A stretch of DNA of 64,000 nt. It comes from Candidatus Paceibacter sp. GTDB lineage: Bacteria; Patescibacteriota; Patescibacteriia; Magasanikbacterales; UBA922. Under the pieces are notes generated by a model, which saw nothing but the letters and a program-made list of their open reading frames with translations, was not told the origin of the DNA and ran no database searches. The DNA is taken from the NCBI GenBank assembly GCA_020725175.1, contig DYFM01000005.1, positions 1,855 through 65,854 of the forward strand. Direction: 5' to 3'. The translations under genes were made by a program, and so were the position numbers. Of this stretch, positions 1,724 to 44,781 are shown piece after piece (the first letter of the stretch is position 1; every line of letters begins with the position of its first letter).

Positions 1724-2305
1724 ATGGAAGGTATGGAAGTATATATTGATGAATCAGGAATTCATAAATTTTCCGGTTATAGTGTTGTTTGTTTTGTTTA
1801 TGTACAAACTGATGGAGTAAAAGAAGTAGAAAAAGCACTGATAAAAGTTGAAAATTTACTTGGAATTAGAAAGTTTCGTTGGTCCGATTTTGGTTCCAAA
1901 CGAGGATGGGTGGTACGAGAAAGTTTTATTCGTCATATAATACCACTACCGTTTCTTTTCAATATTATATATTTTCAAAACCCTATCGCATTTCATTCTG
2001 CTTTTGAGCATGTTCTACATTCTGTTATTCAGCATGATAGAATAAGGAAAATCATTATTGATGGTAAAAAATCGAGAACGTATTCTCGGCGCATAAAAAA
2101 TGTACTACGTAAACATAACATTTCTGTGAAAAAAGTAGTTATGGCAAATGATGGGGGTACTCCAGGGTTACGATTAGCAGATGCTCTTGCCGGGTTATAT
2201 CGATCACATATGGAGAAACCAACGAGCAAAACAAATGATCTGATAAGTTTAATCACTCGTAACAACAAAAAACCGTCCATTATGGACGGTCAGATTGCCC
2301 GGTAG
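1724..2305 (+). CDS. DUF3800-domain protein
   Basis: N-terminal VYIDESG and C-terminal LRLADALAG motifs are typical of DUF3800. The start lies 4 nt after the translin-like gene. Confidence 0.5.
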   Translation: MEGMEVYIDESGIHKFSGYSVVCFVYVQTDGVKEVEKALIKVENLLGIRKFRWSDFGSKRGWVVRESFIRHIIPLPFLFNIIYFQNPIAFHSAFEHVLHSVIQHDRIRKIIIDGKKSRTYSRRIKNVLRKHNISVKKVVMANDGGTPGLRLADALAGLYRSHMEKPTSKTNDLISLITRNNKKPSIMDGQIAR

Positions 2306-2467
2306 TTTGGAAGTCTTCCAAACTCTCCCCATACGGCGGATTTGTCCCGGGTTCTTGTTCTAGATAAACTATATCATTATTTAAGAAGATTGTCAATCAT
2401 TATGTCTCGATACATGTGCTGTGACTTAGACAATTAGCCAAAACCCTCTATTTCCTAAAATTAGAAA

Positions 2468-2934: not shown

Positions 2935-4314
2935 ATGTTTATTAAACAAACCCTCAAAAAACTCATTCCCAAAAAAATCCTCAACCTTCGCCATCTTTTT
3001 TTTGCCTGGTATGGGGCAGTGAAATATCGACATCCGTCGGAGGAGCTTTTTGTGATTGGAATTACCGGCACGAGTGGAAAATCAACGACGGTTTTTTTGT
3101 TACGACAATTACTTGAGGCGGCCGGATACACCGTTGGTTCACTTTCTACAATTGATTTTTATATTGCCGGAGAAAACAAACTCAATGATCAAAAAATGAC
3201 CATGCTTGGAAAAACAGCCATTCAGAAATATTTACGCGAGATGGTTGATAAGCAGTGTGACATTGCAATTGTCGAGACAACTTCTGAGGGGCGGGTTCAG
3301 CATCGGCATCGGGTTATCAATTACGACATGATGCTTTTGACAAACTTATATCCGGAACATATAGAATCACATGGAGGATTTGACAATTATAAACAAGCAA
3401 AAGTGGATTTGTTTGAATATACCGGGAATGCAAAACATAAAAAACAGATAAAACATATAAAACCGATAAAACAAATTGAAAACAAAGTTGTGCCAAAGAC
3501 CGCAATTGTAAACGGTGAGAGTGAATATGCGAGAGAATTTTTACAATGTTCCTTTGATAATACATACATCTTTGGTAGAGAAAAACAATACAACAGTATA
3601 GCGATACAACAAAACAACAATACAACTACCGTCTCAAACATTTCAGTTGATAAAACAGGATTGCATTTTGCTATTGATGGACATACTATGAACGCGCCCA
3701 TGTTTGGTGAGCATAACGTGATGAATATTTTGGCGGCTGTGACAGTTGCTAAAACGCTTGGGATTTCGTGGAATGTCATAACCAAGGTTGTTTCTTTGTT
3801 TCAAAATGTTCCCGGGCGTTGTGAATTTATTCGTGAGGCGGAAAAACGAGGATTCCAAGTCATTGTTGATTATGCCTTTGAACCAAAAGCGATTGCGGCA
3901 TTGTATCATGTAGTTGACTTGTTACAGCCCAAACGTATTATCCATATATTTGGTTCTACCGGAGGTGGAAGAGATGTTGAGCGGAGATTTACGGTTGGGT
4001 CATTTGTTGCTCAAAGAGCTGATGTTTGTATCGTTACTGATGAGGACCCATATGATGATGATCCGGTAAGTATTATGAATGATGTAGCTTCAGCAGTCAG
4101 AAAAGAAGGAAAGAAAGATGGAGAAGGTTTATTTGTAGTCTTAGATAGAAAAGAGGCGGTGAGAACAGCTCTACAGTTGGCACGATCTGGGGATTTGGTG
4201 TTATTAACTGGAAAAGGAAGCGAACAAAAAATGTGCGTTGCGGGTGGAAAAATGATTCCTTGGGATGATAGAACAGTAGTACGAGAAGTACTCGCCGATT
4301 TACCAGAAGTATGA
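2935..4314 (+). CDS. Mur ligase family protein (MurE-like UDP-N-acetylmuramoyl-tripeptide synthetase)
   Basis: GITGTSGKSTT P-loop, Mur ligase middle and C-terminal domains. It also carries an in-frame 9-bp repeat insertion at about 3430-3485 encoding KHKKQIKHIKPIKQIENK. Confidence 0.7.
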   Translation: MFIKQTLKKLIPKKILNLRHLFFAWYGAVKYRHPSEELFVIGITGTSGKSTTVFLLRQLLEAAGYTVGSLSTIDFYIAGENKLNDQKMTMLGKTAIQKYLREMVDKQCDIAIVETTSEGRVQHRHRVINYDMMLLTNLYPEHIESHGGFDNYKQAKVDLFEYTGNAKHKKQIKHIKPIKQIENKVVPKTAIVNGESEYAREFLQCSFDNTYIFGREKQYNSIAIQQNNNTTTVSNISVDKTGLHFAIDGHTMNAPMFGEHNVMNILAAVTVAKTLGISWNVITKVVSLFQNVPGRCEFIREAEKRGFQVIVDYAFEPKAIAALYHVVDLLQPKRIIHIFGSTGGGRDVERRFTVGSFVAQRADVCIVTDEDPYDDDPVSIMNDVASAVRKEGKKDGEGLFVVLDRKEAVRTALQLARSGDLVLLTGKGSEQKMCVAGGKMIPWDDRTVVREVLADLPEV

Positions 4315-4327
4315 TATACTTCTTTTC

Positions 4328-7780: not shown

Positions 7781-7802
7781 CAATAAAAAAAATGTGGAGT
7801 TC

Positions 7803-7835
7803 TCCGCCCAAGGCGGATCCGCCTCGGGCGGAGAT
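7803..7835. repeat. Tandem GC-rich hairpins (TCCGCC-CAA-GGCGGA and TCCGCC-TCG-GGCGGA)
   Basis: Two adjacent short GC stems related to the CCCAAGGCGGA repeat family. Confidence 0.45.
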
Positions 7836-7857
7836 CCTCCGAGGTGGCTCAATCGGG

Positions 7858-7883
7858 ATAACGTGCAGGTCGTGGGTTCTTTG
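7858..7883 (+). repeat. Partial duplicate of the tRNA-Thr 3' half (taacgtgcaggtcgtgggttc)
   Basis: A 21-nt exact match to the anticodon-stem-to-T-stem segment of tRNA-Thr lies about 80 bp downstream of the gene. There is no acceptor stem. Confidence 0.5.
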
Positions 7884-8017
7884 AAAATACGAATTCGCCT
7901 CGGGTGGAAATCTATATTCTCGACTCAAAGAAGTTATTCACACGTTTAGACTTTCTAAACGTGTTTTTGTTCTAGGAGAAAAAAGGGAAATGTGGTATAC
8001 TTTGTTTTGTAAATCAA

Positions 8018-8850: not shown

Positions 8851-9759
8851 ATGATCACTTTCTTTCGAGCTATAAAATTTGCTTTTCAAGACATGGGAAG
8901 AAACCTGAGTTTATCCCTCATGACGGTATTTATTTTGGTATTGATGCTTTTATCCATGAATACTCTTCTTATAATACGAACCTTGACTACTGAAGCAACA
9001 TCGTCTATCAAGGATCAGCTTGATATTAGTATCTACTTTAGAGAAGAAACGACCGATGAGCAGGTGGAGGAAGTACGAAAATATTTGGAAACATTTCCCG
9101 AAGTGGTGGAGTTGACAGTCAAAAGTAGAGATGAAGTACTGTCGGAATTTCAAGCAAATTATGAAGGAAATAAGGATGTTCTTGATGCACTTGCTGAACT
9201 TGATGAGAACCCACTTGGGGCAACGATTATTGTAAAAACCAAAGACCCAATTGATTATGAAAAAATCATTGCGTCACTGACGGTCCCTGAGTACAAAAAT
9301 ATCATTGTGGATAAGCCATTTGAAGACAGTAAGACTGCTATTTCTCGTATTGATATTATTACAAAACAGGTGGAGAGATTTACCATTGCTCTCAGTGCAT
9401 TTTTTGCTTTTATTGCTTTTCTCATTATTTTCAACACGATTCGGGTGTCTATTTTTACCCAAAGAGTAGAAATTAACATTAAAAAGTTGGTAGGCGCGAC
9501 AAATTGGTTTATTCGTTCCCCATATGTTATTAGTGCCTTTATTTTCAATCTAGTGAGTGTGGGAATCGCAACTGCAATTGTCTACTACTCTGTAGGTTTT
9601 CTTGATCCCTATACAAGCGTTATTTTTGGTTCAAGCAATATCTTGACAAATTACTACAATTCGCATATACTGATGCTGCTTGGAATTCAGTTTGTGGGTG
9701 TTCTTCTTTTGACTAGTACCACTAGTTGGTTGGCAATGAGAAGACATTTAAGAGTATGA
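8851..9759 (+). CDS. ftsX: Cell division permease FtsX
   Basis: Four transmembrane helices with a large periplasmic loop, plus the conserved KLVGATNWFIRSPYV segment. It is adjacent to ftsE. Confidence 0.8.
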   Translation: MITFFRAIKFAFQDMGRNLSLSLMTVFILVLMLLSMNTLLIIRTLTTEATSSIKDQLDISIYFREETTDEQVEEVRKYLETFPEVVELTVKSRDEVLSEFQANYEGNKDVLDALAELDENPLGATIIVKTKDPIDYEKIIASLTVPEYKNIIVDKPFEDSKTAISRIDIITKQVERFTIALSAFFAFIAFLIIFNTIRVSIFTQRVEINIKKLVGATNWFIRSPYVISAFIFNLVSVGIATAIVYYSVGFLDPYTSVIFGSSNILTNYYNSHILMLLGIQFVGVLLLTSTTSWLAMRRHLRV

Positions 9760-9830
9760 CTAAGTCTTCTGAGGAGGCTGAGTTTCTGAGTAACTGAGTT
9801 GAAATATTCTTAATTTTAGGTAAAAAAAGT

Positions 9831-10193
9831 ATGGGGGGTACGGCCAATTTTAAGAATTTGTTTGTTTATCAGTGTTCATTCAAAAATGCCCTAGAGATAT
9901 ATCGTTTCTCTCAACAGTTGCCTCAATACCTACGATATGATATTGCAGATGACCTGAGAAGAGCAGCTAGATCAGTCCCTTCCAATATTGCTGAAGGATA
10001 TGGAAGGAATAAATCAAATGCTGATATTGTAAACTTTTTACGAACTTCGTTGGGATCGAATGATGAAGTGGTGTTTAATCTAGAGTTTTTAAAAGGATTA
10101 TCCTTGATTAACGAAGAGCAGTATCAACATTTTACAGGTCAAAGCAAACTTATTGGGTCGGGCTTACAAAAATTAATACAGTCACTTTCCTAG
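9831..10193 (+). CDS. Four-helix-bundle protein (TIGR02436 / 23S rRNA intervening-sequence protein family)
   Basis: NIAEGYGR motif and an overall ~120-aa helical pattern. Confidence 0.65.
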   Translation: MGGTANFKNLFVYQCSFKNALEIYRFSQQLPQYLRYDIADDLRRAARSVPSNIAEGYGRNKSNADIVNFLRTSLGSNDEVVFNLEFLKGLSLINEEQYQHFTGQSKLIGSGLQKLIQSLS

Positions 10194-10513: not shown

Positions 10514-10677
10514 TCGGAAGTAGCTCAGTGGTAGTCCCGACAGTGGTCGGGAGTATATCCTCAAGAGCTATATACGGATGAGAATTACAACATATTCGGA
10601 AGTAGCTCAGTGGTAGTCCCGACAGTGGTCGGGAGTATATCCTCAAGAGCTATATACGGATGAGAATTACAACATAT
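10514..10677 (+). repeat. Two tandem 82-bp units, each beginning with the first ~22 nt of tRNA-Asn
   Basis: catattcggaagtagctcagtggtagtcccgacagtggtcgggagtatatcctcaagagctatatacggatgagaattacaa appears twice with period 82. The third unit is the genuine tRNA gene. Each unit contains the hairpin tcccgac/gtcggga. Confidence 0.75.
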
Positions 10678-11087
10678 TCGGAAGTAGCTCAGTGGTAGAG
10701 CAGTTGGCTGTATATCACGGAATGCGTGTTTTATTACGCATACGACTAGCAGCTCTCGATAGGAATATCGGGATGAAGAACAAGGTGAATTGCTGGAAAC
10801 CCTATCAGGTTATGCTGAGGGTAATCAGCAGCCAAGCCCTATATCTCTACGGAGATCAGTAGGGAAGGTTCAGAGACTATCCTGTAATGGGAGTAGGCTG
10901 GTACATGTATCAGTCGAAGCGCCTTGCACCCCATCGCTTTCGAGCAATCGAAATTTGGCGAGGGTGAAGATATAGTCCACGCTTTCCTGACTATATTGTC
11001 GGGACGATAAACCGTTTCGGTTGTCGCTGGAAACAGGAGATATTACGTGTAACCAATTGGTCGTGGGTTCGAATCCCACCTTCCGAG
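10678..11087 (+). tRNA. tRNA-Asn (anticodon GTT) interrupted by a group I intron; exons 10678-10711 and 11050-11087
   Basis: The exons fold as acceptor TCGGAAG/CTTCCGA with discriminator G, D-arm GCTC AGTGGTA GAGC, anticodon stem GTTGG/CCAAT, and T-arm GTGGG TTCGAAT CCCAC. The anticodon loop becomes CT GTT AA when the exons are joined after U35. U1-A72 with G73 fits Asn identity; Thr-UGU is the alternative if the splice site is two nt upstream. Confidence 0.65.
10712..11049 (+). ncRNA. Group I self-splicing intron in the tRNA-Asn anticodon loop, ~338 nt, no endonuclease ORF
   Basis: The conserved core elements are present: P (aattgctggaaa), Q (aatcagcagc), R (gttcagagacta) and S (aagatatagtcc). 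The 5' exon ends in U and the intron ends in G. Confidence 0.7.
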
Positions 11088-11311
11088 CAAAAAAGGGTGA
11101 GCAGGTTCTAACGAGCCTGTTTTCTTGTATATGGAGCCATTTTTGAGAAGTTCGGAAGTGAGAAAAAAAGCACTAACTATTTTTTGCTTCAAATAAGACA
11201 TACTTAATTTATCTCGGTGACTAGTGTCGGTGGGGTTCGGACTACGTGTACATAATAAACAAAATAAGAGTATCATTACTCTTATTTTGAAAAATCATTG
11301 TTTTGGTTAAT

Positions 11312-12079
11312 TTATGTGACTTTTCTCAGCACTTCCCATCGGTCATTTCCTTGATTTGTGTAAAATCCTATTTTGAGAGTCTCATTAAAAATTCTTTGTA
11401 CAAACTCGTTATACTCATCTGCATTTCTATCAAATCGTGGCATTCCTTGTGGATCTAAATATGTACTCCACAAATCTGCTAATCTTCTAAAAGTATTTAC
11501 ATCAATAAGATGCGCATCACTGCTTATTTGTGCCATATCTATATTTCCATTTCCTCTAACTACATATATTTGCTTTATTGAATTTCTCCCATTTGAAAAA
11601 TGATTATATATATCCGCCAAGGAAAAAGAATATTCAGCGTTGTGGCTATGTAGTACCGCAGAAATTACTTCGTCTCGGTAAACAATGAGTCCGGAGGGCG
11701 TAGTTATTTCAGTTCGTTTCAACGGTGCAGAAATCGGAGCGCTATATTTCTCTCCTTGTATCAGTGGTCCAAGTTTGAGGTTTCCCTCATGATCGGCCAC
11801 TACCGAACAACTAAATTCAGTATCATATGAATCATGCAGGTAACGTAACTCATCAGCAATTCGAGAAAAATCGCTTGTCGGCCCGTATTCTGCAATGTCG
11901 TCGTAGGCCTCATCCATGAAATCTAATGGTCTATCAATGAGAACAGAGCTGGGCAAATTTTCAAAACTGGGGGGGGTTTCCAGAATAGAATGTCTTAATA
12001 GATCGTGTGCATCCACAAGTTGTTCACTTCTTCTATCTCTGGAATCTCCTCCAAATCTCTTTGATTCGGAATATGGCAT
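11312..12079 (-). CDS. Hypothetical protein, no recognisable domain
   Basis: 255-aa ORF flanked by a hairpin terminator at 11265-11290. It is the first gene downstream of the tRNA cluster. Confidence 0.45.
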   Translation of the reverse strand: MPYSESKRFGGDSRDRRSEQLVDAHDLLRHSILETPPSFENLPSSVLIDRPLDFMDEAYDDIAEYGPTSDFSRIADELRYLHDSYDTEFSCSVVADHEGNLKLGPLIQGEKYSAPISAPLKRTEITTPSGLIVYRDEVISAVLHSHNAEYSFSLADIYNHFSNGRNSIKQIYVVRGNGNIDMAQISSDAHLIDVNTFRRLADLWSTYLDPQGMPRFDRNADEYNEFVQRIFNETLKIGFYTNQGNDRWEVLRKVT

Positions 12080-13228: not shown

Positions 13229-16200
13229 TCACCCTCCCGTCACATAATACACAATCTCCACCGGCTTCACACTATATTCTCCGGTAATCATCAACGTCAG
13301 AGGTCCTTCGGTAACGTCAGTTGGGATGATATAGGTATCATTTGAGAAACTTCCACTTGTATTAGCATTGAACGAATGAACCACCTCCTCGCCGGTTCGA
13401 TCGGTTCGAATTTGAATTGGTTCGTTTGGCAGATAGCCGCTACCGATAAATTGTATAGCAGTACCAGGTGCCCCGGCGTATGAGCCAAGTTCTGCCCCGA
13501 GATATACTTCTCCGTGGATAAAGTTTGCTGTAGCTGTGCTACCGGTAGAGGCTCCGGTAGCAGACACGGTTCGTTCACCGGACAGAAAACCGGGGACAGT
13601 GGTGTTGAAGATAAGGTTGCCAGATTCATCGGCAGTAGTTGTACCAAGTAGAAGTCCGTCAAACGTCACTATAACATCTTCACCAGCTCCAAAACCCATA
13701 CCGCTAACAGTAAGCGCTTCTCCACCAAAGCCATAGTAGTGTGATAGTTCAATTCCGGAAGTAAGAGGGGCTACTGTGATTGGTACGGAAACAATAGTAG
13801 CACTGAGTTGTCCGGAAAAAGTAAAAATTACTTCTGTCGCTCCATACGGAATCTGTAATTTGGTATCTGCAAAGGTACCAAATTCATTGGTAGAAAGGGT
13901 AGAAAGAGGTGTGTCGTTTAGTGTAACACGGATCTCTTCACTGGCTGCAAAACCGCTACCTTCAAATGTAACATATGATCCGGCTGGAGTATACCATGTG
14001 TTTGGAGTTACTTCAGGAGTAAAACCGGATAGAGTGATTGTTACCTCTGAAAACGCGCCACTGTTTGTTCCTGAAATGATAAACGTAGCTCCACCGGTAG
14101 TCGTAACCGGGATAGTAATAGGCTCAGTATCAATTTCTCCGGCTGTACTTGAAACTGTTTCAGCAAGTATTTCATCATTTAGAGAAATGGAAACAGGTTC
14201 TTCGCCGCTAAATCCGGTACCTGAGAAGGAGATCTGGCTTCCTGGAGCGGTATACCAGGTACTTGGGGTAACTTGTGGAGTAAATGGTGCAAGCGTAAGA
14301 GTCGTGATGCCGGTCGCGTTACTCATGCCTCCGGTTATCTTTACCGGTACGGTTGAGTTTGATAGACCAAGTGGAATGACTACCGGGGTAGGAGAGACGG
14401 TTCCGTCATGTTCTGCATAGGCATTGATTGACGTTTCACCAACTTCAATTGTTACCGGCTCATTTGGAGCAAACCCAACTCCTGAAACATGTACTGGTGT
14501 TCCGGGGAGAGCATAGTATGAATCTAGTTCAATATATGGAGTAAGTGCGGCAATAGTAACCGTAACTTCAGATGTACCACCACTTTCTTGCCCGATAAAG
14601 ACATACGTTTCTGAGCCATCAGATTCGAAGCCGGTTGTAACGGTTAGGTTCTCAAAATGTCCGTCAATATCTGCCTGTGTTGTTTCTAACATGTTTCCAT
14701 CATTCCTCATGATAATGTTTTCACCGGGAGCAAATCCATCTCCGGAAAAAGTGAGGGGGCTTCCGGCTGGAAGATACCATGTCTGTGGCGTAACCATCGG
14801 ATACAAGCTGCCGAGAGAAATTTCTAGTTTACTTTCTAATCCACTCTTCATTCCTGTTGCATGAATTGTAATACGTGATCCGGAAAGGGGAGCGACAAAC
14901 GGCGCATTCTCGATAAGCACGCCTTCCTCATCGGTTTCAACTTCTATCGGTGCTCGATCATTCATACGAATTTCAACAATGTCCTCTGGAGCAAATCCGC
15001 TACCACTTACCGTAAATGGTTCTGCTGGAAGAATGTAATAAGAAGAAGGGGAGAGAGTGGGGTAAAAGGTGCCAATACTTAGTGATACAGTTGCTTTTGC
15101 TTGGCTCTCCTGACCTTCAAACCGCACTAGACGTGTTTCTTGCCAGGTGTAGGGAATAGTTATTGCCCCAGCTTCGGTAAATGCACCATCAACATCAGTT
15201 GTTATAGTAGTTAATAACTCTCCTGTTACATCGTCCATAACTTGCACCTCTTCATCCGTTCCAAATCCAGTTCCGGTAAATGAAACGTCTGTTCCGGGAA
15301 GAATATAATAGTTATTTGGTGAAACCTGGGGTGTAAATGGAGCAATGGTAATGAGTACAGTTGCTTCGGTTTTACTATTTGTTCCGGAAAGAACTATCGT
15401 GCGACTACTGTTTGACCAGGTAAAAGGAATGGTAAATGTTCCGGCAGTGAGAAATGTGCCGGTACTGTCTGAAGTAAATGAAGCGAGAGGTGTAGAATTG
15501 TTTCCTTCTGTTACCACAATCGTTTCACTATTCCCAAACCCGCTACCGGAAAAAGAAATGGTATGTCCAGCAATGTTGTGATAGCTTGATGGTTCAACGA
15601 GAGAATTGAACGAACCAATCGTGAGCGCAACCTCAGCTTGACCACCACTCGTTTGTCCAATGAGGGTAAATGTGCGAATGCTGTTTAGCCAATCATATGG
15701 AATGACAATTGCGCCGGCATCAAAAAAATTACCGTCTGAATCTGAGCTGAACGTTGCAATAGGTTCGGTGGGGTTACTGGTTTCGTACACGTCAATTGTT
15801 TCGTGGATTGCATACCCTCCACCGGAAAACATGAGCGTTTCTTCCGGAAGAAGATAGTGGGTAGAAGGAGTAACATTTGGAGTAAAGGTACCAATTGTAA
15901 TGTCTACCGAAGCCTCGGCATTACTCGTATTTCCTCGTAACGTAAACGTTTGCGATCCGGTCAGGCTGAGCGGAATAGGTATCGTACCGGCATCTGTAAA
16001 CGATCCATTTGCATCAGCCTGAATAGAGGCGAGTGGAGAGCCATCGTCTCCTTTGTAGACCTGTATTTCTTCATGGGTCGCAAATCCACTGCCGGAAAAA
16101 CTGAGTGATTGAGTAGGAAGCACATAATACGTGGACGGAGAAATACTCGGGAAAAAACCACCAACGTAAAAATAGTCAATGGTTGTTGCGGCAGAGGATT

Positions 16201-17555: not shown

Positions 17556-17589
17556 ACATTGTATTAGTAGGGATCAAACGAATGAGGCG

Positions 17590-17630
17590 GATTACAACGA
17601 ATTCGTTATAATCCGTTCAATTCGATCAAT
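17590..17630. repeat. Palindromic element cggattacaacgaa/ttcgttataatccg; member of the AACGGAT-core family
   Basis: 14-bp near-perfect inverted repeat centred on AACGAATTCGTT. Confidence 0.45.
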
Positions 17631-17643
17631 CCGTGGTCTATTA

Positions 17644-27387: not shown

Positions 27388-27437
27388 CACCTTGTTGAAT
27401 TTGGAGAGGGTGTTATACTAGCTCTATAACATAGCGT

Positions 27438-30295: not shown

Positions 30296-30352
30296 TCGGA
30301 TATAACAGATGAAACGGATCAGTTCTAATCCGTTTCATCTGTTATATCCGTG
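30296..30352. repeat. Perfect 23-bp-arm palindrome (cggatataacagatgaaacggat ... atccgtttcatctgttatatccg); AACGGAT-core family
   Basis: Inverted repeat with a 9-nt loop, upstream of the Rrf2 regulator promoter. Confidence 0.55.
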
Positions 30353-30897: not shown

Positions 30898-32307
30898 ATG
30901 CCTAAAAAAAAGTCACAACTTCATTTTGACGTAAACCGAACACTCTACGAACAAGCCAACGAAGATCGATCGCGATACAGAGCGACTCCGGGGCTTACAG
31001 AAGATGTGGTACGAGAAATTTCATCTCAAAAAAATGAGCCGAATTGGATGTTGGAAAAACGACTGAAGGCACTTGCGTTATTTCAAGAAAAACCGATACC
31101 CACGTGGGGACCAAGCCTAGCAAACCTCAATTTGGATGAGATTGTATATTTTGTTCGCCCTGATACCGAAGAAGCCAGAAAATGGGAAGATGTGCCGGAT
31201 GATATCAAAAAAACCTTTGAGCGTTTGGGAATTCCTGAAGCTGAGCGAACCGCTCTTGCTGGTGTCGGCGCACAATATGATTCTGATGTAGTCTATCATA
31301 GTATCAAAGAAGATCTTCAAAAAAAGGGAGTAATTTTTGAAAACATGGATGTGGCGGTAAAGGAATATCCTGAACTGGTACAAAAGTACTTTATGACACA
31401 GTGCGTACCAATTCATGATCATAAATTTGTTATGCTTCACGCAGCCGTGTGGTCAGGCGGGACATTTATTTATATACCAAAAGGTGTCAAAGTAGAACTT
31501 CCGCTCCAAGCATATTTTCGAATGAATGCTGAAAGTGGGGGGCAATTTGAGCATACACTCATTATTGCGGATGAAGACGCGGAGGTTTCTTACATTGAGG
31601 GCTGCTCTGCACCACGCTATACCACAAATTCACTTCATGCCGGTTGTGTAGAAATTTTTGTTCATAAAAATGCAACAGTGCGATATTACTCTATTGAAAA
31701 TTGGTCCAAAAATACCTACAACTTAAATACCAAGCGTGCCCTCGTCGATGCCGGTGGAAGAATTGAGTGGGTGAGTGGTAATATGGGTTCTGGAACTACT
31801 ATGCTGTATCCGGCATCAATTTTGCGTGGTGAAGGAGCTTCAGCAGATAATCTCGGCATTGCAGTAGCCGGTCCGGGACAGCATCAGGATATTGGAGCGA
31901 AAACGTTTCATGTGGCACCAAGAACCAAATCAGTTACTCGTTCTCGGTCAATTTCGTTTGGGGGAGGTATTGCCAGTTTTCGAGGAATAGTAAAAGTAAG
32001 TAGAAACGCGGTTGAAAGTGATTGTTCGGTCTCGTGTGATGCTTTACTCCTTGATGGAAAGTCCAGCGCCTACACATATCCCGGAATGGAAATAAATACC
32101 AATGATGTGACAGCAGCTCACGAAGCGAAGACGGGGAAAATTGACGAGGAAGTATTGTTTTATTTGATGAGTAGAGGACTGTCGCAAGAACAGGCGACAC
32201 AATTGGTCGTTGGGGGATTTGTCGAACCGATTGTGAAAGCACTACCGCTTGAATACGCACTCGAGCTGAATCGATTGGTGGAGATGGAGATTGAGGGGTC
32301 TGTCTAG
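30898..32307 (+). CDS. sufB: Fe-S cluster assembly protein SufB
   Basis: SufB/SufD beta-helix family and 469-aa length. Confidence 0.8.
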   Translation: MPKKKSQLHFDVNRTLYEQANEDRSRYRATPGLTEDVVREISSQKNEPNWMLEKRLKALALFQEKPIPTWGPSLANLNLDEIVYFVRPDTEEARKWEDVPDDIKKTFERLGIPEAERTALAGVGAQYDSDVVYHSIKEDLQKKGVIFENMDVAVKEYPELVQKYFMTQCVPIHDHKFVMLHAAVWSGGTFIYIPKGVKVELPLQAYFRMNAESGGQFEHTLIIADEDAEVSYIEGCSAPRYTTNSLHAGCVEIFVHKNATVRYYSIENWSKNTYNLNTKRALVDAGGRIEWVSGNMGSGTTMLYPASILRGEGASADNLGIAVAGPGQHQDIGAKTFHVAPRTKSVTRSRSISFGGGIASFRGIVKVSRNAVESDCSVSCDALLLDGKSSAYTYPGMEINTNDVTAAHEAKTGKIDEEVLFYLMSRGLSQEQATQLVVGGFVEPIVKALPLEYALELNRLVEMEIEGSV

Positions 32308-32391
32308 CTAAACATTGTCATCCTGAATGTAGCCGAAGCGATGTGAAGGATTTGTCAAAAATAAAAAGAAAATAATTGATAGAGCTTCGGA

Positions 32392-32455
32392 TTTAACGGA
32401 TTGGACGAATTAGAACGGATCAGTTAATATCCGTTTCATCCGTTAAATCCGAAGG
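32392..32455. repeat. Palindromic element cttcggatttaacggat ... atccgttaaatccgaag; AACGGAT-core family
   Basis: Long imperfect inverted repeat between sufB and sufS. Confidence 0.5.
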
Positions 32456-32524
32456 TCTATTCAACCCTTAAAAATGTAGAAGCCCGCCGTGATTCTCTCG
32501 AATGGCGGCGGGCAGTGCTCACCC

Positions 32525-32611
32525 TCACCTGTTTTTCCCCCAAAACAGGAAGAGGGCGAGCAGTACTTGGAATCCACCGAGGATTCCAAGTACGATAAAG
32601 ACGGCTTCCAT
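32525..32611 (-). CDS. Candidate small hydrophobic peptide (28 aa: MEAVFIVLGILGGFQVLLALFLFWGKNR)
   Basis: Perfect Shine-Dalgarno sequence AGGAGGTAAAAATG, a single predicted transmembrane helix, and a GC-rich hairpin (gcccgccg ... cggcgggc) with a T-run immediately downstream. It sits in a GC-rich islet antisense to the spurious N-terminal extension of the sufS ORF. Coordinates are +/-2 nt. Confidence 0.3.
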   Translation of the reverse strand: MEAVFIVLGILGGFQVLLALFLFWGKNR

Positions 32612-32665
32612 TTTTACCTCCTTTCCACCCGTAGCCGTCATTGGGTGGCTAGACTAGTATATCAT

Positions 32666-33895
32666 ATGCTTTTAAATCTAAAAGAATGTAAGATTTGCTT
32701 TCCAATATTCCAAAAACACCCCAATCTAGTCTATCTAGATTCAGCTTCCAGTACCCAAACACCACAAACTGTTCTTGATGCAGTGAACGATTACTATATA
32801 AACTACCGAGCAAATATTCATCGAGGATTATATGATTTGAGTGGTACTGCAACACAGAAATATGAGGAAGCCAGAAAAACAGTAGGAAAGTTTATCAGCG
32901 CAAGTTCGAAAGAAATTGTCTTCACATCCGGAACAACTCATGGTCTAAATCTACTCGCCTCAGGAGTACAAAATACTCTTCAGCCGGGTGATAATATTGT
33001 GTTGACTGAAATGGAACATCATGCGAATTTAATTCCGTGGCAAAAAATTGCAAAGAAGAAGGGGATGGAGCTACGATTTATACCAATGAACAGGGAACAG
33101 AGGACAGGGAACAGTTACGAATTGGGTGTTTCTGACATTGAAAATTTGATTGATGAAAAGACGAAAATCGTATCTTTTACTCTGGTATCAAATACGCTCG
33201 GAACAATTAATCCGGCGGAAGAAATTATTGCTCGAGCAAAAAAAATTGGTGCAATCACAATTGTCGACGCAGCACAGGCAATGGCGCACATGCCGATTGA
33301 TGTAAAGATATTAGACTGCGATTTTATGGTATTTTCCGGACATAAAATGTATGGTCCAACCGGAATTGGTGTTTTATACGGAAAAAAAGAAAGGTTGGAA
33401 GCACTTGAACCATTTTTTTATGGCGGAGACATGGTCCGTTCTGTATCGTATGAAGATGCAACTTGGGCAGATGTACCGGAAAAATTTGAAGGGGGTACGC
33501 CAAATATTGCGGGTGCGATTGGACTTGGTGCTGCGGTTGAATTTATTCAGTCTACTGGGTTTGATAAAATACAGAATCACGAAACACAATTAACTAATAA
33601 ACTAATAAACCAATTAAATAGTATACCTGATGCTCGGATAATTGGATTGAATTCAGAGGAAAAAAGAATTGGAGTAGTCTCATTTTTACTAAAAGACATT
33701 CATCCTCACGATGTGGCGGAAATATTGAATCGCGACCAGGTATGTGTCCGTACTGGGCATCACTGCACTATGCCACTTATGAAGAAACTTGGTTTACCAG
33801 GAACAGTACGTGCTTCAGTTGGGATTTACAATACGGAAGATGATATTGATAAACTTTTTGCGTCTTTAGCGAGAGTTATGGCTGTTTTTAAATAG
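32666..33895 (+). CDS. sufS: Cysteine desulfurase SufS (class V aminotransferase)
   Basis: YLDSASSTQ start region, PLP-binding SGHK, and the active-site Cys motif RTGHHC. I placed the start at the internal ATG (MLLNLKE). The exact coordinate is +/-1 nt because my manual count disagrees by one with the ORF track in this region. Confidence 0.8.
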   Translation: MLLNLKECKICFPIFQKHPNLVYLDSASSTQTPQTVLDAVNDYYINYRANIHRGLYDLSGTATQKYEEARKTVGKFISASSKEIVFTSGTTHGLNLLASGVQNTLQPGDNIVLTEMEHHANLIPWQKIAKKKGMELRFIPMNREQRTGNSYELGVSDIENLIDEKTKIVSFTLVSNTLGTINPAEEIIARAKKIGAITIVDAAQAMAHMPIDVKILDCDFMVFSGHKMYGPTGIGVLYGKKERLEALEPFFYGGDMVRSVSYEDATWADVPEKFEGGTPNIAGAIGLGAAVEFIQSTGFDKIQNHETQLTNKLINQLNSIPDARIIGLNSEEKRIGVVSFLLKDIHPHDVAEILNRDQVCVRTGHHCTMPLMKKLGLPGTVRASVGIYNTEDDIDKLFASLARVMAVFK

Positions 33896-33897
33896 AC

Positions 33898-33968
33898 CGC
33901 GGATTTAACGGATGGAACGAATTAAAACGGATCCGTTCCAATCGGTCTAATCTGTTAAATCTGCGGTC
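33898..33968. repeat. Palindromic element gaccgcggatttaacggat ... atctgttaaatctgcggtc; AACGGAT-core family
   Basis: Long inverted repeat between sufS and sufU. Confidence 0.5.
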
Positions 33969-33983
33969 TATTAAGCATAATCT

Positions 33984-34376
33984 ATGAAGCAAACCGACCC
34001 AATCTACAAAGAAATGATCCTATATCTATATAAAAATCCACTAAACAAAAAACAGTTGGCCGATTTTGATTGTTCACATAAAGAATACAATCCCAGCTGT
34101 GGAGACGAAATAGAAATCATGATCAAATTTGATGAGTCCGGTAAAATTATCGATATTGGACACCAAGGTGAAGGCTGTGCTGTTTCACAAGCAGCGGTTT
34201 CTTTGTTGACAGAAGAAGTAAAGGGTAAAAGCAAAGAAGAGGTGATGAGTTTGACTGAAGAGGAAATGATTAACATGCTGGAAATTCCTATTTCTCACAC
34301 GAGATCAAAATGTGCATTACTGGGTTTGAAAACTATTCTATTTTGTTTTGATAGACCTTCGAATAAGACGAATTAA
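33984..34376 (+). CDS. sufU: SufU/IscU-like zinc-dependent sulfur-transfer scaffold
   Basis: NPSCGDE, GEGCAVSQA and KCA give three conserved Cys in the NifU-N-like fold. Confidence 0.7.
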   Translation: MKQTDPIYKEMILYLYKNPLNKKQLADFDCSHKEYNPSCGDEIEIMIKFDESGKIIDIGHQGEGCAVSQAAVSLLTEEVKGKSKEEVMSLTEEEMINMLEIPISHTRSKCALLGLKTILFCFDRPSNKTN

Positions 34377-34430
34377 ACGGATATTAACAGATCCCTTCTA
34401 ATCAGTTGCACTCGTTAAATCCGAAGATCT
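34365..34430. repeat. Imperfect palindromic element (gacgaattaaacggat ... cgttaaatccgaagatc); AACGGAT-core family
   Basis: Located between sufU and sufC. It shares the ttaaacggat and atccg words with the other copies. Confidence 0.4.
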
Positions 34431-34443
34431 ATCAACATTTTAT

Positions 34444-35172
34444 ATGCTACAAACAAAAAATCTCCATGTATCAGTAGAAGAAAAAGAAATTCTTCAAAAC
34501 ATCAATCTCTCCATTAAGCCCGGTGAACTTCATGTAATTCTCGGCCCAAACGGATCTGGAAAATCTACACTTGCCAATAGTCTTATGGGACATCCATCAT
34601 ATAACGTCACAGATGGTAAAATAGAGATTGATGGTATTGATATCACACATGAACAAGTGAATAAGCGAGCCAAGGCTGGACTATTTCTTTCGTTACAAAA
34701 CACACCGGAAATTCAAGGTGTTACTGTTTCAAATTTTTTACGAACAGTGATCAGTAGCAAAACAGGTGAGAAGCTTCATCCGGTAAAATTTTATAAGACC
34801 CTACAAGAAAAAATGAAGGAGCTTCAAATAAATCCTGAGTTTGCAAAACGGTACATTAATGTCGGATTTTCCGGTGGAGAAAAGAAACGGCTAGAGATTC
34901 TTCAACTGTTGCTCCTTAACCCAAAATATGCTATTCTCGATGAAACAGATTCTGGGCTTGATGTTGATGCACAAAAAATAGTAGCTGAAGGAATAACAAC
35001 ATTTCATGGAGCAGGAAACGCGGTATTACTTATCACTCATCATCATAAACTGTTAGATTATCTGAATCCTGATATGGTACACATTATGAAAGAAGGCAAA
35101 ATCATGAAAACCGGCACCGCTGAACTAGCTAAAACAATCTTACAACAAGGTTTTTCCAATCTAACCATATGA
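34444..35172 (+). CDS. sufC: Fe-S cluster assembly ATPase SufC
   Basis: Walker A GPNGSGKST, ABC signature FSGGEKKR, Walker B ILDETDSGLD. Confidence 0.9.
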   Translation: MLQTKNLHVSVEEKEILQNINLSIKPGELHVILGPNGSGKSTLANSLMGHPSYNVTDGKIEIDGIDITHEQVNKRAKAGLFLSLQNTPEIQGVTVSNFLRTVISSKTGEKLHPVKFYKTLQEKMKELQINPEFAKRYINVGFSGGEKKRLEILQLLLLNPKYAILDETDSGLDVDAQKIVAEGITTFHGAGNAVLLITHHHKLLDYLNPDMVHIMKEGKIMKTGTAELAKTILQQGFSNLTI

Positions 35173-35456
35173 TCACAAAAGAACGAATTATTGAGGAACT
35201 TGAAACCATTATCGATCCGGAAATTGGTCTTGATTTGTGGACACTTGGACTCATTTACAACATCAATATCGAAAGTGAAGAAAAAGTCATTATTACTCTC
35301 ACATACACAACCCCCCTGTGCCCATATGGTCCAGCTATCAATACTGAGGTCACTGATGCCATGCGGTCACTCGGCTTTAAGGCAGTAGAAATTGATCTGA
35401 CGTTTGATCCGCCTTGGAAACCACCGGAGAATCTGCGAGAGATGATGGGGGTGTAA
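35169..35456 (+). CDS. DUF59/MIP18-family Fe-S assembly factor (SufT-like)
   Basis: DPEIG.....LGLIY and TLTYTTPLCP are the DUF59 signature. It overlaps the sufC stop by 4 nt. Confidence 0.65.
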   Translation: MITKERIIEELETIIDPEIGLDLWTLGLIYNINIESEEKVIITLTYTTPLCPYGPAINTEVTDAMRSLGFKAVEIDLTFDPPWKPPENLREMMGV

Positions 35457-35461
35457 TACTT

Positions 35462-35872
35462 ATGAGTACAAAATGCAGTACACCCGCATTTCGTATTTCA
35501 CGTGTAGACAGAATTATGAAAGTTCAAAAAAAAGTTCGCGTCTGCTCCTCGCGTTCCTGCACGGTATTTGGGAGTAAAAGAATCATGCAGAGTATTACAG
35601 ATGCTACTGGCTTGAAACCAGGAGAAAAAGATGATACAATGGATCTTGATTGGTGTGGTTGTTTGGGGTACTGTGCCAAGTCTCCAAATGTTCAGATCAA
35701 TGATGATCAGTATATTTTTACTGCTAAACCAGATACTATTATGCAAGATATTCAACAAGGAGGCGTCAACATGGTCGGAAAAGAACTTGATATCGAACGA
35801 GTATATCAAGATTTATTTAAAGATGATATATTGGAGCAACCATTACCAACAGTTGATATTTCAGAGGAGTAA
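35462..35872 (+). CDS. Thioredoxin-like [2Fe-2S] ferredoxin (NuoE-like)
   Basis: The four Cys in CSSRSC ... CGCLGYC fit the CxxxxC ... CxGxC pattern of the thioredoxin-like [2Fe-2S] ferredoxin fold. I placed the start at the internal ATG (MSTKC). Confidence 0.5.
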   Translation: MSTKCSTPAFRISRVDRIMKVQKKVRVCSSRSCTVFGSKRIMQSITDATGLKPGEKDDTMDLDWCGCLGYCAKSPNVQINDDQYIFTAKPDTIMQDIQQGGVNMVGKELDIERVYQDLFKDDILEQPLPTVDISEE

Positions 35873-35945
35873 TACACAGTGTAGCGCAAATAGTTAGGAC
35901 TGCACGTTAATTTAACCTACCGCAGTGTTACAATTGTAATGTTCT

Positions 35946-36266
35946 ATGCTAGATACAGCAAATAACAACACCCCACACAACGACGTGATACTTCCAAACG
36001 ATTTACCGGATGATATCTCCCAAAACGTTCGCAAAGAAGGAAAGATTCGACGTATTGTTGTAGACAGACAAGCCTGTATTGGAGCTAGATCTTGTGTATT
36101 GGTAGCCGAAAAAGTGTTTCAAATGGATGACCAGAATCTCGCGTACGTCACTACTGATGTTGACAGTACCGATGAAGATACGATCAAAATGGCCGCTGAA
36201 GTGTGTCCGGTACTAGCAATTCATTTGTACGACAAAGAGGGGAATAAGCTGTTTCCGGAAGAATAA
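35946..36266 (+). CDS. Single-cluster ferredoxin ([3Fe-4S]/[4Fe-4S])
   Basis: CIGARSC ... CP Cys pattern and a ~100-aa length. Confidence 0.55.
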   Translation: MLDTANNNTPHNDVILPNDLPDDISQNVRKEGKIRRIVVDRQACIGARSCVLVAEKVFQMDDQNLAYVTTDVDSTDEDTIKMAAEVCPVLAIHLYDKEGNKLFPEE

Positions 36267-36275
36267 TATATGGTA

Positions 36276-36305
36276 ACAAATCTAACACGACCGCTTATTC
36301 GGTCG
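36276..36305 (+). terminator. Rho-independent terminator after the ferredoxin gene
   Basis: acacgaccgcttattcggtcgtgtttttt. Confidence 0.65.
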
Positions 36306-36371
36306 TGTTTTTTGTTTAATGGGAAGTGGGCGGGCGGGTACTCGGCAACGTGCTTTTCCCCGCCCCCCTGC

Positions 36372-36464
36372 CTAGATCGACTGGTGGCACTGCCACCAGT
36401 CGACCAGGCATAGGATCACCGCCAACACTGCGTTGACGGTGATCACCCACAGGAGGATAACCAT
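36372..36464 (-). CDS. Candidate small hydrophobic peptide (30 aa: MVILLWVITVNAVLAVILCLVDWWQCHQSI)
   Basis: Perfect Shine-Dalgarno sequence AGGAGGTGAAAAATG. The SD and start codon sit inside a hairpin (cacaggagg ... cctcctgtg). The gene lies in a 170-bp GC-rich islet that contains a 27-bp perfect palindrome (tcgactggtggcactgccaccagtcga). The overlapping 61-aa track ORF has no ribosome-binding site. Confidence 0.3.
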   Translation of the reverse strand: MVILLWVITVNAVLAVILCLVDWWQCHQSI

Positions 36465-36535
36465 TTTTCACCTCCTGTGCCAAAAGTATAACAATAAACA
36501 CAGCTCATTGTAAGCTGTGTTTATTTAGTAGGTGT

Positions 36536-39178
36536 TTATTTCTTATTTATCTCAATTTTATTTTTCTTAATTCCAACGGTCACCGTATCGCCTTCAGCAA
36601 TAGTTCCTTCCACAATTTGGAGTGCCAGCGCATCAAGGAGCTCATGCTGAATAACCCGTTTCAATGGCCGTGCACCTAGGTTTGGATCATAGCCTTTTTT
36701 AGAAAGCCATTCCTTTGCCTTGTCCGTAACTTCAAGTACAATACGTTTTTCATGCATACGGCGATAGACTTGCTCCAGTTGGGTATCGACAATTTGACGA
36801 ATTTGTTTTTCTGTCAGCGGATGAAATACAATAATTTCATCAATTCGATTCAAAAATTCCGGTTTAAAATTTTCTCGAAGAGCTTCCATTACCCGAGAAC
36901 TGATTTTTTCTTCTCGTTTTGCTTTGGTGATAGTATCACTTTTTTCTGCAAATCCAAATTCACCCTTTCGTCCGAGTTGCATGATCATGTCACTCGCAAT
37001 ATTACTGGTCATGATAATAACCGTATTTTTGAAATTTACTTTTCTTCCTTTTGCGTCAGTCAAATGTCCATCTTCGAGAATCTGCAACATGATATTGAAT
37101 ACATCCGGATGGGCTTTTTCCACTTCATCAAACAAAACAACTGAATATGGTTTGCGGCGAATAACTTCAGTAAGCTGTCCACCCTCCTCATAGCCAACAT
37201 ATCCCGGTGGAGAACCAATAATTTTACTGGCCGTATGTTTTTCCATGTATTCAGACATATCCACCCGAACCAAAGCATTTTCATCGTTGAACATGAATTC
37301 AGCCAGAGTTTTAGCAAGTTCAGTTTTCCCTACACCAGTCGGGCCAAGAAAGATAAATGAACCAATCGGTCGTTTTTCCTCAGAAATACCGGCTCGTGAA
37401 CGGCGAATAGCATTTGCTACCGCTTTGATTGCTTCTTCTTGCCCAATAACTCGTTTGGCAAGTACACATTCTAAATGGGCAAGCTTACGTGTCTCATCCT
37501 CAAGCATTTTTTGAACCGGAATTCCAGTCCAACGCGCAACTACTCGCGCAATATCTTCTTCTGTCACTTCTTCCTTGAGAATCGCACGCTTACCTTGGAG
37601 TTCAGACAGTTTCTTTTCGTCCTGAGCAATTTGACGTTCCAATTCCGGAATGCGAGCATAGCGAATTTCAGCAACTTTTTGCAGATCTCCTTTTCGTTCT
37701 TCTATGTCAGCCTGCTGTTTCAGCTTGTCAATTTCTTTTTTTGCTTCCCGAATCTTGGTAATAATTTCTTTCTCGTGTTTCCAATGTACTTCTAGTTCGT
37801 TGCTTTGTTCTTTCAGATCTGCCAGTTCTTTGGAAAGCTTAGATTTCCGTTCCTCCGCCTCCGGATCATTTTCTTTTTTGAGCGCTCTTAGTTCAATCTC
37901 GGTTTTCATGATTCTTCGTTTCAGATGATCTAGGTCATCCGGCATAGATTCTATCTCCATTCGAATCGCAGAGGTTGCTTCATCAATAAGATCGATTGCT
38001 TTGTCAGGAAGAAATCGGTCGGTAATATAACGACTCGCCAATTTTACCGCAGAAACCACTGCTGAGTCAGTAATACGTACCCCGTGGTGTACTTCATATT
38101 TTTCTTTAATTCCACGAAGTATTGCGACAGCATCATCTTCACTTGGTTCTTTCACCATGACTGGCTGAAAACGGCGTTCAAAAGCCGCGTCTTTTTCAAT
38201 ATACTTCTGATATTCTTTGATGGTTGTCGCGCCAATAGTACGAAGTTCTCCACGGGCAAGTGCCGGCTTCAACATGTTTGACGCGTCTACCGCACCTTCA
38301 GAACTTCCAGCACCAATAATAGTATGAAGTTCGTCAATAAAAAGAATGATTTTTCCTTTGGAATTGGTTACTTCTTTCAATACAGCTTTTAGTCGTTCTT
38401 CAAACTCACCACGAAATTTTGTTCCGGCCACCAGTGCACCTATATCCAATCCTACCAATTCTTTTCCCTGTAAACTTTCCGGCACATCACCTTTGACAAT
38501 TCGTTGTGCCAACCCTTCTACAATGGCTGTTTTTCCAACACCTGGTTCACCAATAAGAACTGGATTATTCTTAGTTCTTCGGGTCAACACTTGCATAACC
38601 CGCCGAATTTCATCGTCTCGTCCGATCACTGGATCAAGTTTTTCCTTGCGAGCCATTTCAGTAAAATTTTGACCATACTTTTCAAGCGATTGATAGGTTG
38701 ATTCCGGAGTAGGGGAACTGACTTTTTGTGAACCACGAACTCCTGCCAATACTTTTAACACCATATCATAATCTATTCCTTCAGAAAGGAGCATGTCGCT
38801 AATGGGGTTTTTATTACTGAGAAAGGCCAGGAGAAGATGTTCAACACTTATATAGTCATCACCCATTTTTTTCGATTCTTGTTGAGCGTTTTTTAAAATA
38901 TACATGGCCCCTTGTCCCATAAGAACTTGCCCCATAGCGCCCGGACTCATACCAAACTGTCGAGGGAGCACATTCATCAGTGATTCAACGTCACCTTTAA
39001 GCTGATCAAGGTTTACGTTTAATTTTTGAAAAACTGCAATAACCACACCATCCTGTTGCTCCAATAGAGCGGCAAACAAGTGTGGCGGCTCTATCTGTGG
39101 CTGTCCATGATCGTTGGCGATTTCTTGAGCCCGCTGAATTGCTTCTTGTGATTTTTGGGTAAAATTTTGTGGATTCAT
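36536..39178 (-). CDS. clpB: ATP-dependent chaperone ClpB
   Basis: Clp N-domain, two AAA+ modules (GEPGVGKT and GPTGVGKT) and a long middle coiled coil; 880 aa. Confidence 0.9.
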
Positions 39179-43295: not shown

Positions 43296-43371
43296 GCATC
43301 ACTCTCCCTATTTTATCAACACCAAACAACCTTTCTCAAACCCTCGACATATGCTATACTAAACATAGCAT

Positions 43372-44616: not shown

Positions 44617-44664
44617 TAGCTCTCACAAACAACAGACTATTATTAGTCATGTTGAACAAGTAAA

Positions 44665-44742
44665 CAGACCGCGAATGAAACGGATTAAACAAAATGCAAC
44701 GAATTCGTTTTTATCTATCTAATCTGTTTCATTCGCGGTCTA
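44665..44742. repeat. Palindromic element agaccgcgaatgaaacggat ... atctgtttcattcgcggtct; AACGGAT-core family
   Basis: A 20-bp near-perfect inverted repeat around a ~38-bp core that contains AACGAATTCGTT. Confidence 0.5.
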
Positions 44743-44781
44743 TTTTGCTTCATAGCTATATAACTAAAAAATTATCTAAAA

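Follow-up and report, generated by a model that had tools for sequence, protein, structure and literature searches.

Two GC-rich islets at the suf locus of a Patescibacteria genome carry candidate structure-locked membrane-peptide mini-genes

Type I toxins of bacteria, such as those of the Fst/par, Hok/Sok, TisB/IstR-1, AapA1/IsoA1 and BsrG/SR4 systems, are peptides of fewer than 40 amino acids with one transmembrane (TM) helix and a polar or basic tail. Their mRNAs are stable and highly folded, and a strong ribosome-binding site is sequestered by the structure of the mRNA itself. The genes are intergenic, often acquired and commonly missing from annotation. Other small membrane proteins, including MgrB, AcrZ, KdpF and CydX, are usually co-oriented or co-regulated with a partner gene and are conserved across species. 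Here, we describe two GC-rich islets in a 64,000-nucleotide stretch of DNA from Candidatus Paceibacter sp. (contig DYFM01000005.1; the whole stretch is referred to below as the window, and all positions are counted in it unless a related locus is named). Each islet lies in a gap of the suf locus for iron-sulfur cluster assembly and carries, on the minus strand, a short open reading frame (ORF) led by a perfect Shine-Dalgarno (SD) sequence.

The islets resemble type I toxin genes in the size of the product (fewer than 40 amino acids), its single predicted TM segment and tail, the predicted occlusion of the ribosome-binding site, the folded mRNA and the intergenic position. They differ in that the coding region itself consists of near-perfect hairpins, with a folding energy of -0.54 to -0.59 kcal/mol/nt, in that the host does not use SD sequences, and in that neither a dedicated antisense RNA gene or promoter nor similarity to toxin families was found. 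With MgrB, AcrZ, KdpF and CydX, the islet peptides have in common their size, the single TM segment and their omission by annotation, whereas the islets are orphan, GC-rich, structurally locked and antisense to their neighbors. We read them as translationally locked genes for small, toxin-like membrane peptides carried on acquired cassettes, a reading to which we give a probability of about 45%.

The islet 1 ORF (32525..32611, minus strand) encodes 28 amino acids followed by TGA, MEAVFIVLGILGGFQVLLALFLFWGKNR, with a single predicted TM segment and a basic C-terminal tail. The islet 2 ORF (36372..36464, minus strand) encodes 30 amino acids followed by TAG, MVILLWVITVNAVLAVILCLVDWWQCHQSI, in which a single predicted TM segment is followed by WW and a polar tail containing Cys and His. 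The SD sequence of islet 1, AGGAGG (32617..32622, minus strand), is separated by 5 nt (TAAAA) from the ATG at 32611, and that of islet 2, also AGGAGG (36471-36476, minus strand), by 6 nt (TGAAAA) from the ATG at 36464; the spacing is optimal in both cases. Gene callers overlook both mini-ORFs. They were first proposed in an earlier note made from the letters of the sequence, whose reading of both frames and both peptides holds without change. In islet 1, translation from another in-frame ATG at 32641, which lies some 8 nt inside the predicted 5' end, would yield a form of 38 residues.

These ORFs are unusual both in the window and relative to what their hairpins alone would generate. The best 19-residue hydropathy is 2.63 for the islet 1 peptide and 2.87 for the islet 2 peptide, and in both islets the SD-led frame is the only hydrophobic one among the six. 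AGGAGG occurs 23 times in the window when both strands are counted; only two of these copies, those of islets 1 and 2, lie in intergenic DNA and stand before an ATG that opens a frame of 25 or more codons. We generated 20,000 shuffles of each islet that retained its predicted base pairs and composition, and set a hydropathy cut-off of 2.4 over 19 residues. About 27% of these structure-preserving shuffles contained an ORF of 25 codons or more and 1.1% an SD-led ORF, but a hydropathy of at least 2.4 was reached by an ORF in 1/20,000 for islet 1 and in 0/20,000 for islet 2. Therefore, the ORFs are not by-products of the hairpins, and the strongly TM-like character ascribed to them earlier is non-random. 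The GC content of ORF 2 at codon positions 1, 2 and 3, by direct count, is 0.53, 0.30 and 0.90, a periodicity of the coding type.

The minus-strand RNAs are also strongly structured. The two RNAs gave z-scores of -9.4 and -8.0, with minimum free energies (MFEs) of -104.5 (z -9.4) and -93.7 (z -8.0) kcal/mol, and none of 200 shuffles folded as well. Each RNA of about 170 nt is predicted to form four consecutive hairpins, and the coding region of each ORF is built nearly throughout from consecutive near-perfect ones. The layout is common to both: a hairpin in the start region, a 13-bp hairpin with a 5-nt loop located 18 or 20 nt past the A of the ATG, a hairpin of about 19 bp with the stop codon in its 3' arm, and then a GC hairpin. 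The geometry of islets 1 and 2 is the same, and they share no sequence. In approximately 200 kb of DNA from this clade, the islets are the most structured 120-nt windows; their energy densities are -0.59 and -0.54 kcal/mol/nt, compared with -0.30 for the next one (among 20 SD-led TM-like ORFs of 20-45 amino acids in 2.94 Mb).

In islet 2, hairpin 1 (36448..36479, minus strand) has a 9-bp stem, CACAGGAGG/CCUCCUGUG, in which the SD sequence pairs with codons 4-6 and the AUG at 36464 lies in the loop; this is the SD hairpin that the earlier note had written as CACAGGAGG/CCTCCTGTG, and it is present. Hairpin A (36414..36444, minus strand) has a 13-bp stem with one G-U pair and a 5-nt loop, 20 nt past the A of the ATG. 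Hairpin B (36369..36410, minus strand; 7 + 12 bp, with the TAG stop in its 3' arm) contains the 27-bp palindrome claimed previously, which proved to be a perfect palindrome of 13+1+13 at 36377-36403. It is followed by hairpin C (36329..36368, minus strand; GGGGGGCGGG...CCCGCCCGCCC) and a bidirectional terminator (36284-36309) common with the ferredoxin gene. In islet 1, hairpin A (32563..32593, minus strand) is a perfect 13-bp stem with a 5-nt loop within the ORF, 18 nt past the A of the ATG, and hairpin B (32516..32562, minus strand; 11 + 8 bp with one G-U pair) has the TGA stop in its 3' arm. Hairpin C (32470..32513, minus strand; GCCCGCCG...CGGCGGGC) and its T-rich tail TTCTACATTTTT, which adjoin an AT-rich host repeat at 32385-32470, look like a terminator. 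GC hairpins thus stand 3' of both stop codons, as had been noted. Sequestration of the SD sequence is predicted for both RNAs to different degrees: the SD and start of islet 2 would be occluded, and those of islet 1 partly so; its AUG is paired, together with the 3' portion of its SD, in the predicted MFE and centroid structures. A rule that the stems pair third codon positions together was true for islet 2, failed in islet 1 and was dropped.

Transcription signals are found on the same strand. The extended -10 element of the host, TGNTATACT, occurs 13 times in the window compared with 1.84 copies expected, mostly just 5' of genes and often merely 7-18 nt before the ATG. Two of the 13 copies lie directly 5' of the islets on the minus strand, at 32664-32656 and 36493-36485. 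In islet 1, the element (32656..32664, minus strand; TGATATACT) is an exact match to the host consensus and overlaps the sufS start region, with a predicted transcription start near 32649. The islet 2 promoter (36485..36514, minus strand) consists of CTTACA, 18 nt and the extended -10 TGTTATACT, with a predicted start near 36478; the clpB terminator hairpin (36493-36525) supplies its -35 element from the loop. Leaders of about 38 nt in islet 1 and about 14 nt in islet 2 are predicted. Because the host extended -10 motif stands directly upstream, each islet looks like a discrete transcription unit. Moreover, since promoter, SD, ATG, hydrophobic frame, stop and hairpins are co-oriented and non-random, each would most simply be a complete mini-gene.

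Elsewhere in the window, several host ATGs follow the -10 element by 7-11 nt (for example, after the elements at 4312-4320, 27411-27419 and 43352-43360), which implies leaderless mRNAs or mRNAs with very short leaders. SD sequences are absent from all of the roughly 58 native genes in the window, and in four related loci even a 4-mer SD-like match was found for only 3 of 87 native genes. The two perfect AGGAGG sites are therefore anomalous in this host.

The base composition of the islets is equally distinct. In 80-nt windows, the mean GC content is 39.5% (standard deviation 6.7%), and the peaks of islet 1 (62.5%) and islet 2 (68.8%) are the maxima of the window, exceeding those of the three tRNA genes. 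The GC-rich patches reported earlier, and with them the claim of a foreign composition, are borne out by these peaks and by the SD sequences in a host whose native genes lack them.

GC-rich islands in AT-rich genomes are a classic screening heuristic for non-coding RNA genes, and the islets fit this description, since no other part of the window, the tRNAs included, deviates as strongly in GC content and folding. They could accordingly be structured small RNAs, non-coding or dual-function, that control their neighbors (sufB-sufS coupling in one case, the clpB and ferredoxin 3' ends in the other), with the ORF secondary or untranslated. The fold z-scores of -8 to -9.4 agree with such a role, as do the G-U pairs that favor the minus-strand RNA, a geometry that is kept without sequence and so resembles covariation, and the fully antisense position of islet 1 with respect to the suf intercistronic spacer. 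However, hairpins alone yielded the hydrophobic ORF in at most 1 of 20,000 shuffles and the SD-led ORF in 1.1%, and AGGAGG, spacer and ATG have no obvious role in a pure RNA regulator. Unlike typical products of GC-island screens, the islets have an SD-led hydrophobic ORF that structure does not explain, and they belong to no Rfam family: no islet matched at gathering thresholds, and the permissive E-value mode returned only far sub-threshold matches to small RNAs, antisense RNAs and miRNAs. We regard this explanation as quite unlikely.

The earlier note had placed the islets on either side of the suf operon, which is incorrect for islet 1. The plus-strand gene order is Rrf2 regulator, SufB/D (30898-32307), islet 1, SufS (32666-33895), SufU, SufC, SufT, thioredoxin-like 2Fe-2S ferredoxin and 4Fe-4S ferredoxin (ending at 36266), followed by islet 2. 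Islet 1 is thus inside the operon, between sufB/D and sufS and antisense to it, and islet 2 sits between the last ferredoxin gene (4Fe-4S) and the convergent clpB (36536-39178, minus strand). The true SufS start is the ATG at 32666, where the Pfam domain and 119 homologs begin. Public SufS calls (468 amino acids) are 59 residues too long, starting from a GTG at 32489 and running across islet 1 (32489-32665, plus strand). This extension, which has no counterpart in the 119 homologs, is an annotation artifact of an open GC-rich frame. Even the closest SufS proteins share only 65-68% identity; where matches further down the ranking have source names, these are Patescibacteria, mostly Magasanikbacteria. 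Four public metagenome assemblies contain the same 12 kb and differ from the window at one base, 36556, which lies outside the islets in clpB; the islets therefore exist as DNA and are no artifact of assembly. Position 36556 is T in the window and G in the four assemblies, which would change Ile to Leu near the ClpB C-terminus.

The position of islet 1 inside the operon raises the question of the opposite strand. Palindromes fold on both strands, and the plus-strand MFEs of the islets are also low, so the hairpins of islet 1 might serve the suf mRNA as an intercistronic processing or stabilizing element with RNase III sites, the minus-strand ORF being incidental. RNase III is kept in Patescibacteria (PMC12641178), and no canonical plus-strand terminator was found between sufB and islet 1. 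Yet the minus strand folds better in both islets (-87.5 versus -84.9 and -98.9 versus -88.5 kcal/mol), because it has 4 and 3 G-U pairs where the plus strand has 1 and 1. It is also the minus strand that carries the promoter, SD, ATG and hydrophobic frame. Furthermore, islet 2 lies past the ferredoxin terminator and would be part of an mRNA only upon read-through, and relatives manage without any sufB-sufS spacer. A function of the plus strand is, in our judgment, very unlikely.

Comparison with related genomes showed that the suf gaps are variable. The sufB-sufS junction is only 4-13 bp in the relatives L172, L174, L184 and L311; islet 1 and the adjacent AT-rich host palindromic repeat are therefore an insertion. 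An acquired origin of the islets is supported by this junction and by the lack of SD sequences in native genes. The sufB|sufS gap is occupied in the window and in L186, L187 and L310, and these inserts are all antisense and mutually unrelated. In L186, the insert at 9727-9927 (minus strand) encodes 66 amino acids with no clear SD; in L187, an insert at about 9720-9940 (minus strand) encodes 72-85 amino acids with GGGAG before an internal ATG; and in L310, the antisense (minus-strand) insert encodes about 70-80 amino acids with a G-rich SD, GGGGG, and 2-3 TM segments. The last was considered as a relative of peptide 1 and showed no similarity to it. No att-like or shared border motif was detected in three occupied sufB|sufS gaps.

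Other gaps of the locus are occupied as well. The gap between a cysteine desulfurase gene and sufB contains inserts in L172 (8307-8531, minus strand; 74 amino acids, SD GGAGG) and L187 (7790-8053, minus strand; 87 amino acids, SD GGAGG). L187 has a third insert in the sufU|sufC gap (11591-11977, minus strand; a membrane protein of 128 amino acids, SD GGAGG). In the sufT|ferredoxin gap, L172 has an insert at 14093-14248 (minus strand; 51 amino acids, weak SD AGGAA), and L310 has the sole sense-strand case (plus strand; 72 amino acids, SD GGAGG). L311 5438-5688, which is 76% GC and forms the 5' part of a 222-residue thioredoxin-like ferredoxin call (about 100 residues in relatives), is probably a further GC-rich insert in this gap. 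At the position of islet 2, the ferredoxin|clpB gap, L174 has an insert at 13467-14207 (minus strand; 57% GC) that encodes 246 amino acids behind the SD AAGGAG.

Overall, the inserts of the relatives show no similarity among themselves. Almost all run antisense to suf, most are GC-rich, and they are SD-led. None of their ORFs had a Pfam match, no homolog of the L174 protein of 246 residues was detected among 5.8 billion proteins, and no transposase or integrase accompanies the suf-gap inserts. A likeness in Cys motifs among the mini-ORFs of the relatives was not backed by BLASTP. In an approximate count over the first seven loci (about 187 kb), nine orphan or non-coding GC-rich islets lie in suf loci, which make up about a quarter of the sequence, and two elsewhere. 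We also observed other very strong hairpins in relatives: an imperfect one of about 38 bp in L174 (14341-14460, minus strand), just past the clpB terminator and a TATACT box and ahead of the gene for the 246-residue orphan, and a MITE-like 20-bp perfect inverted repeat 3' of Rrf2 in L172 (6271-6390).

A parallel to this pattern is provided by the minimal mobile elements of Neisseria, in which cassettes between conserved flanking genes are swapped by transformation and homologous recombination. Like them, the sufB|sufS gap holds unrelated inserts (the window, L186, L187 and L310) or is empty, with no transposase, integrase or att-like borders. The suf cassettes, in contrast, are much shorter; most exceed the host in GC content, they bear SD sequences in a lineage without them, nearly all are antisense, and their exchange is a conjecture. 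It is possible, though doubtful, that the suf locus of this clade is a landing pad or nursery for mostly GC-rich, SD-bearing orphan mini-genes, nearly all of them antisense, with the islets as the smallest members. Such an arrangement would amount to an undescribed cassette-exchange or gene-birth system with its own mode of translation initiation.

The same observations bear on another explanation, in which the islets are inert or decaying passengers, that is, acquired DNA cassettes in permissive suf gaps that look like genes and have no role in the host. They are orphans without homologs, both their composition and their SD sequences set them apart from the host as foreign, and in relatives the corresponding gaps are either empty or occupied by orphan mini-genes of unrelated sequence. 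The GC-rich neighbor in L174 is just as isolated. But promoter, SD, ORF, stop and hairpins are intact in both islets, the stems are nearly perfect whereas decay would erode them, one geometry is common to two unrelated sequences, and both islets are preceded by an exact host-consensus -10. We therefore consider the passenger explanation unlikely.

Palindrome clusters in intergenic DNA also suggest mobile elements acting at the DNA level. The genome has a separate repeat family, AT-rich palindromes of about 80 bp with the core GACCGCGGATTTAACGGATG..., located in intergenic gaps including two of the suf operon; copies are found at 33891-33972, 44662-44745, 17571-17632, 30297-30350 and 32385-32470, and the last one abuts islet 1. 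If the islets were elements of the REP/MITE type, their ORFs would be there by chance. REP/BIME and Rickettsia palindromic elements are likewise clustered extragenic palindromes, and the Rickettsia elements can be translated. Those elements, however, are multi-copy and conserved in sequence, and each islet occurs once and has no sequence in common with the other: neither the window nor the related loci contain a second copy of either islet, and an additional 10 kb or so of the same genome (about 74 kb covered in all) contained no further GC-rich patch or SD-led ORF. Inspection of the islet borders, for which there is no nucleotide-similar empty site for comparison, revealed neither terminal inverted repeats nor target duplications, and the islets share no borders with the inserts in the same gap of relatives. 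An integron attC origin was also considered and rejected; on inspection, its core-site motifs are not matched, and the ORF has the hairpins within it instead of 3' of it. We regard a REP/MITE identity as barely plausible.

Returning to the reading of the islets as locked genes for toxin-like membrane peptides, several points weigh against it. The peptides showed no similarity to Fst, Ldr, Hok, TisB, Ibs, ShoB, TxpA, BsrG or other toxin families. None of the collections searched yielded a homolog of the peptides or of the islets: Pfam and NCBIfam at E-values up to 10 gave no family match, apart from two irrelevant weak hits, and PHROGs gave nothing; phmmer with peptide 2 against 1.84 billion protein representatives, and a search with peptide 1 extended to 40 residues against 5.8 billion proteins, were negative; and exact look-ups were empty. 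tblastn, which had been suggested at the outset for homologous small ORFs, and blastn were run against plasmids and returned no match. In viral contigs, with degenerate DNA patterns (the C-terminal motifs and the shared AGGAGGT(N)AAAAATGG), only chance matches or ordinary gene starts were obtained. Among 80 SufS loci from other phyla, there was no islet-like sequence and no close relative, the best SufS being about 60% identical, and a metagenome scan with a clade-specific SufS motif yielded only nine short contigs.

Antisense promoters opposite each ORF had likewise been proposed as a check, and no sigma-70-like or TGNTATACT promoter (at most two mismatches) that would give an RNA antisense to either ORF was found on the plus strand. 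Among known translated genes, perfect stems of 13-19 bp inside the coding frame are unusual. The host normally does not use SD sequences, and the 3' end of its 16S rRNA lies outside the window; AGGAGG is a putative ribosome-binding site in this organism. Finally, the reading draws on the sequence of one strain, in which expression, translation and function are predictions. The description of the islets as type I toxin-like consequently stands as a reasonable analogy, supported by size, predicted TM segment and predicted occlusion of the ribosome-binding site, whereas membership in that class is not established, as neither an antisense RNA gene nor family similarity was found. In a literature search, we found no paper connecting type I toxin-antitoxin systems with Patescibacteria.

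If the islets are mini-genes of this kind, they could work as follows. Each would be a self-contained unit on GC-rich DNA inserted into a gap of the suf locus. Host RNA polymerase would start at the consensus extended -10 that is observed directly 5' of it, and the transcript of about 170 nt is predicted to fold co-transcriptionally into four hairpins that hide the SD and start and cover nearly all of the coding region. Translation would thereby be off or very low. Opening of hairpin 1, whether through heat, through RNase processing or through a partner, might switch it on, as might ribosomes that load at the 5'-proximal AUG. The predicted product would be a single-pass membrane peptide of 28-38 (islet 1) or 30 (islet 2) amino acids, which, by analogy, could act on a membrane protein as a modulator or, like type I toxins, damage or depolarize the membrane. 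Antisense RNA for the islets could come only from read-through of suf or ferredoxin transcripts. Because islet 1 is antisense inside the suf operon, suf read-through RNA is fully complementary to its mRNA and could be its antisense partner, and the RNase III kept in the phylum may act on such sense/antisense pairs. Islet 1 RNA could in turn influence sufB-sufS coupling.

Several features outside the suf locus were observed in the window. A DUF3800-II RNA (Rfam) at 2288-2361 (minus strand) is followed by a 575-bp gene-free stretch (to 2935) with a GC-rich patch at 2464-2559. At 7801-7834, a GC-rich near-perfect palindrome (region 7786-7893) is followed by a copy of the 3' part of the adjacent tRNA-Thr, AACGTGCAGGTCGTGGGTTC; the region looks like an integration scar at a tRNA. 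At 10514-11090 (plus strand), a tRNA gene is apparently split by an Rfam group I intron (10722-10999), with its 5' half near 10677-10712 and its 3' half near 11055-11090, and ARAGORN made no call. Tandem copies of about 82 bp (10514-10595 and 10596-10677) precede it, each opening with an identical tRNA 5' half.

Three features of the islets and their surroundings go beyond known patterns: an ORF made of near-perfect hairpins, a perfect SD sequence in a lineage without SD use, and the recurrence of SD-led orphan mini-genes in suf gaps. The presence of perfect AGGAGG sequences on acquired mini-genes only, compared with 0 of about 58 native genes, points either to a working anti-SD for a special class of genes or to silent passengers. 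The accumulation, across the clade, of orphan mini-genes without mutual similarity in suf gaps suggests an unrecognized hot spot of insertion or exchange within an essential operon. Should the islet peptides be translated, Patescibacteria, which are tiny episymbionts, would gain their first candidates for membrane mini-proteins with a toxin-like or regulatory role.

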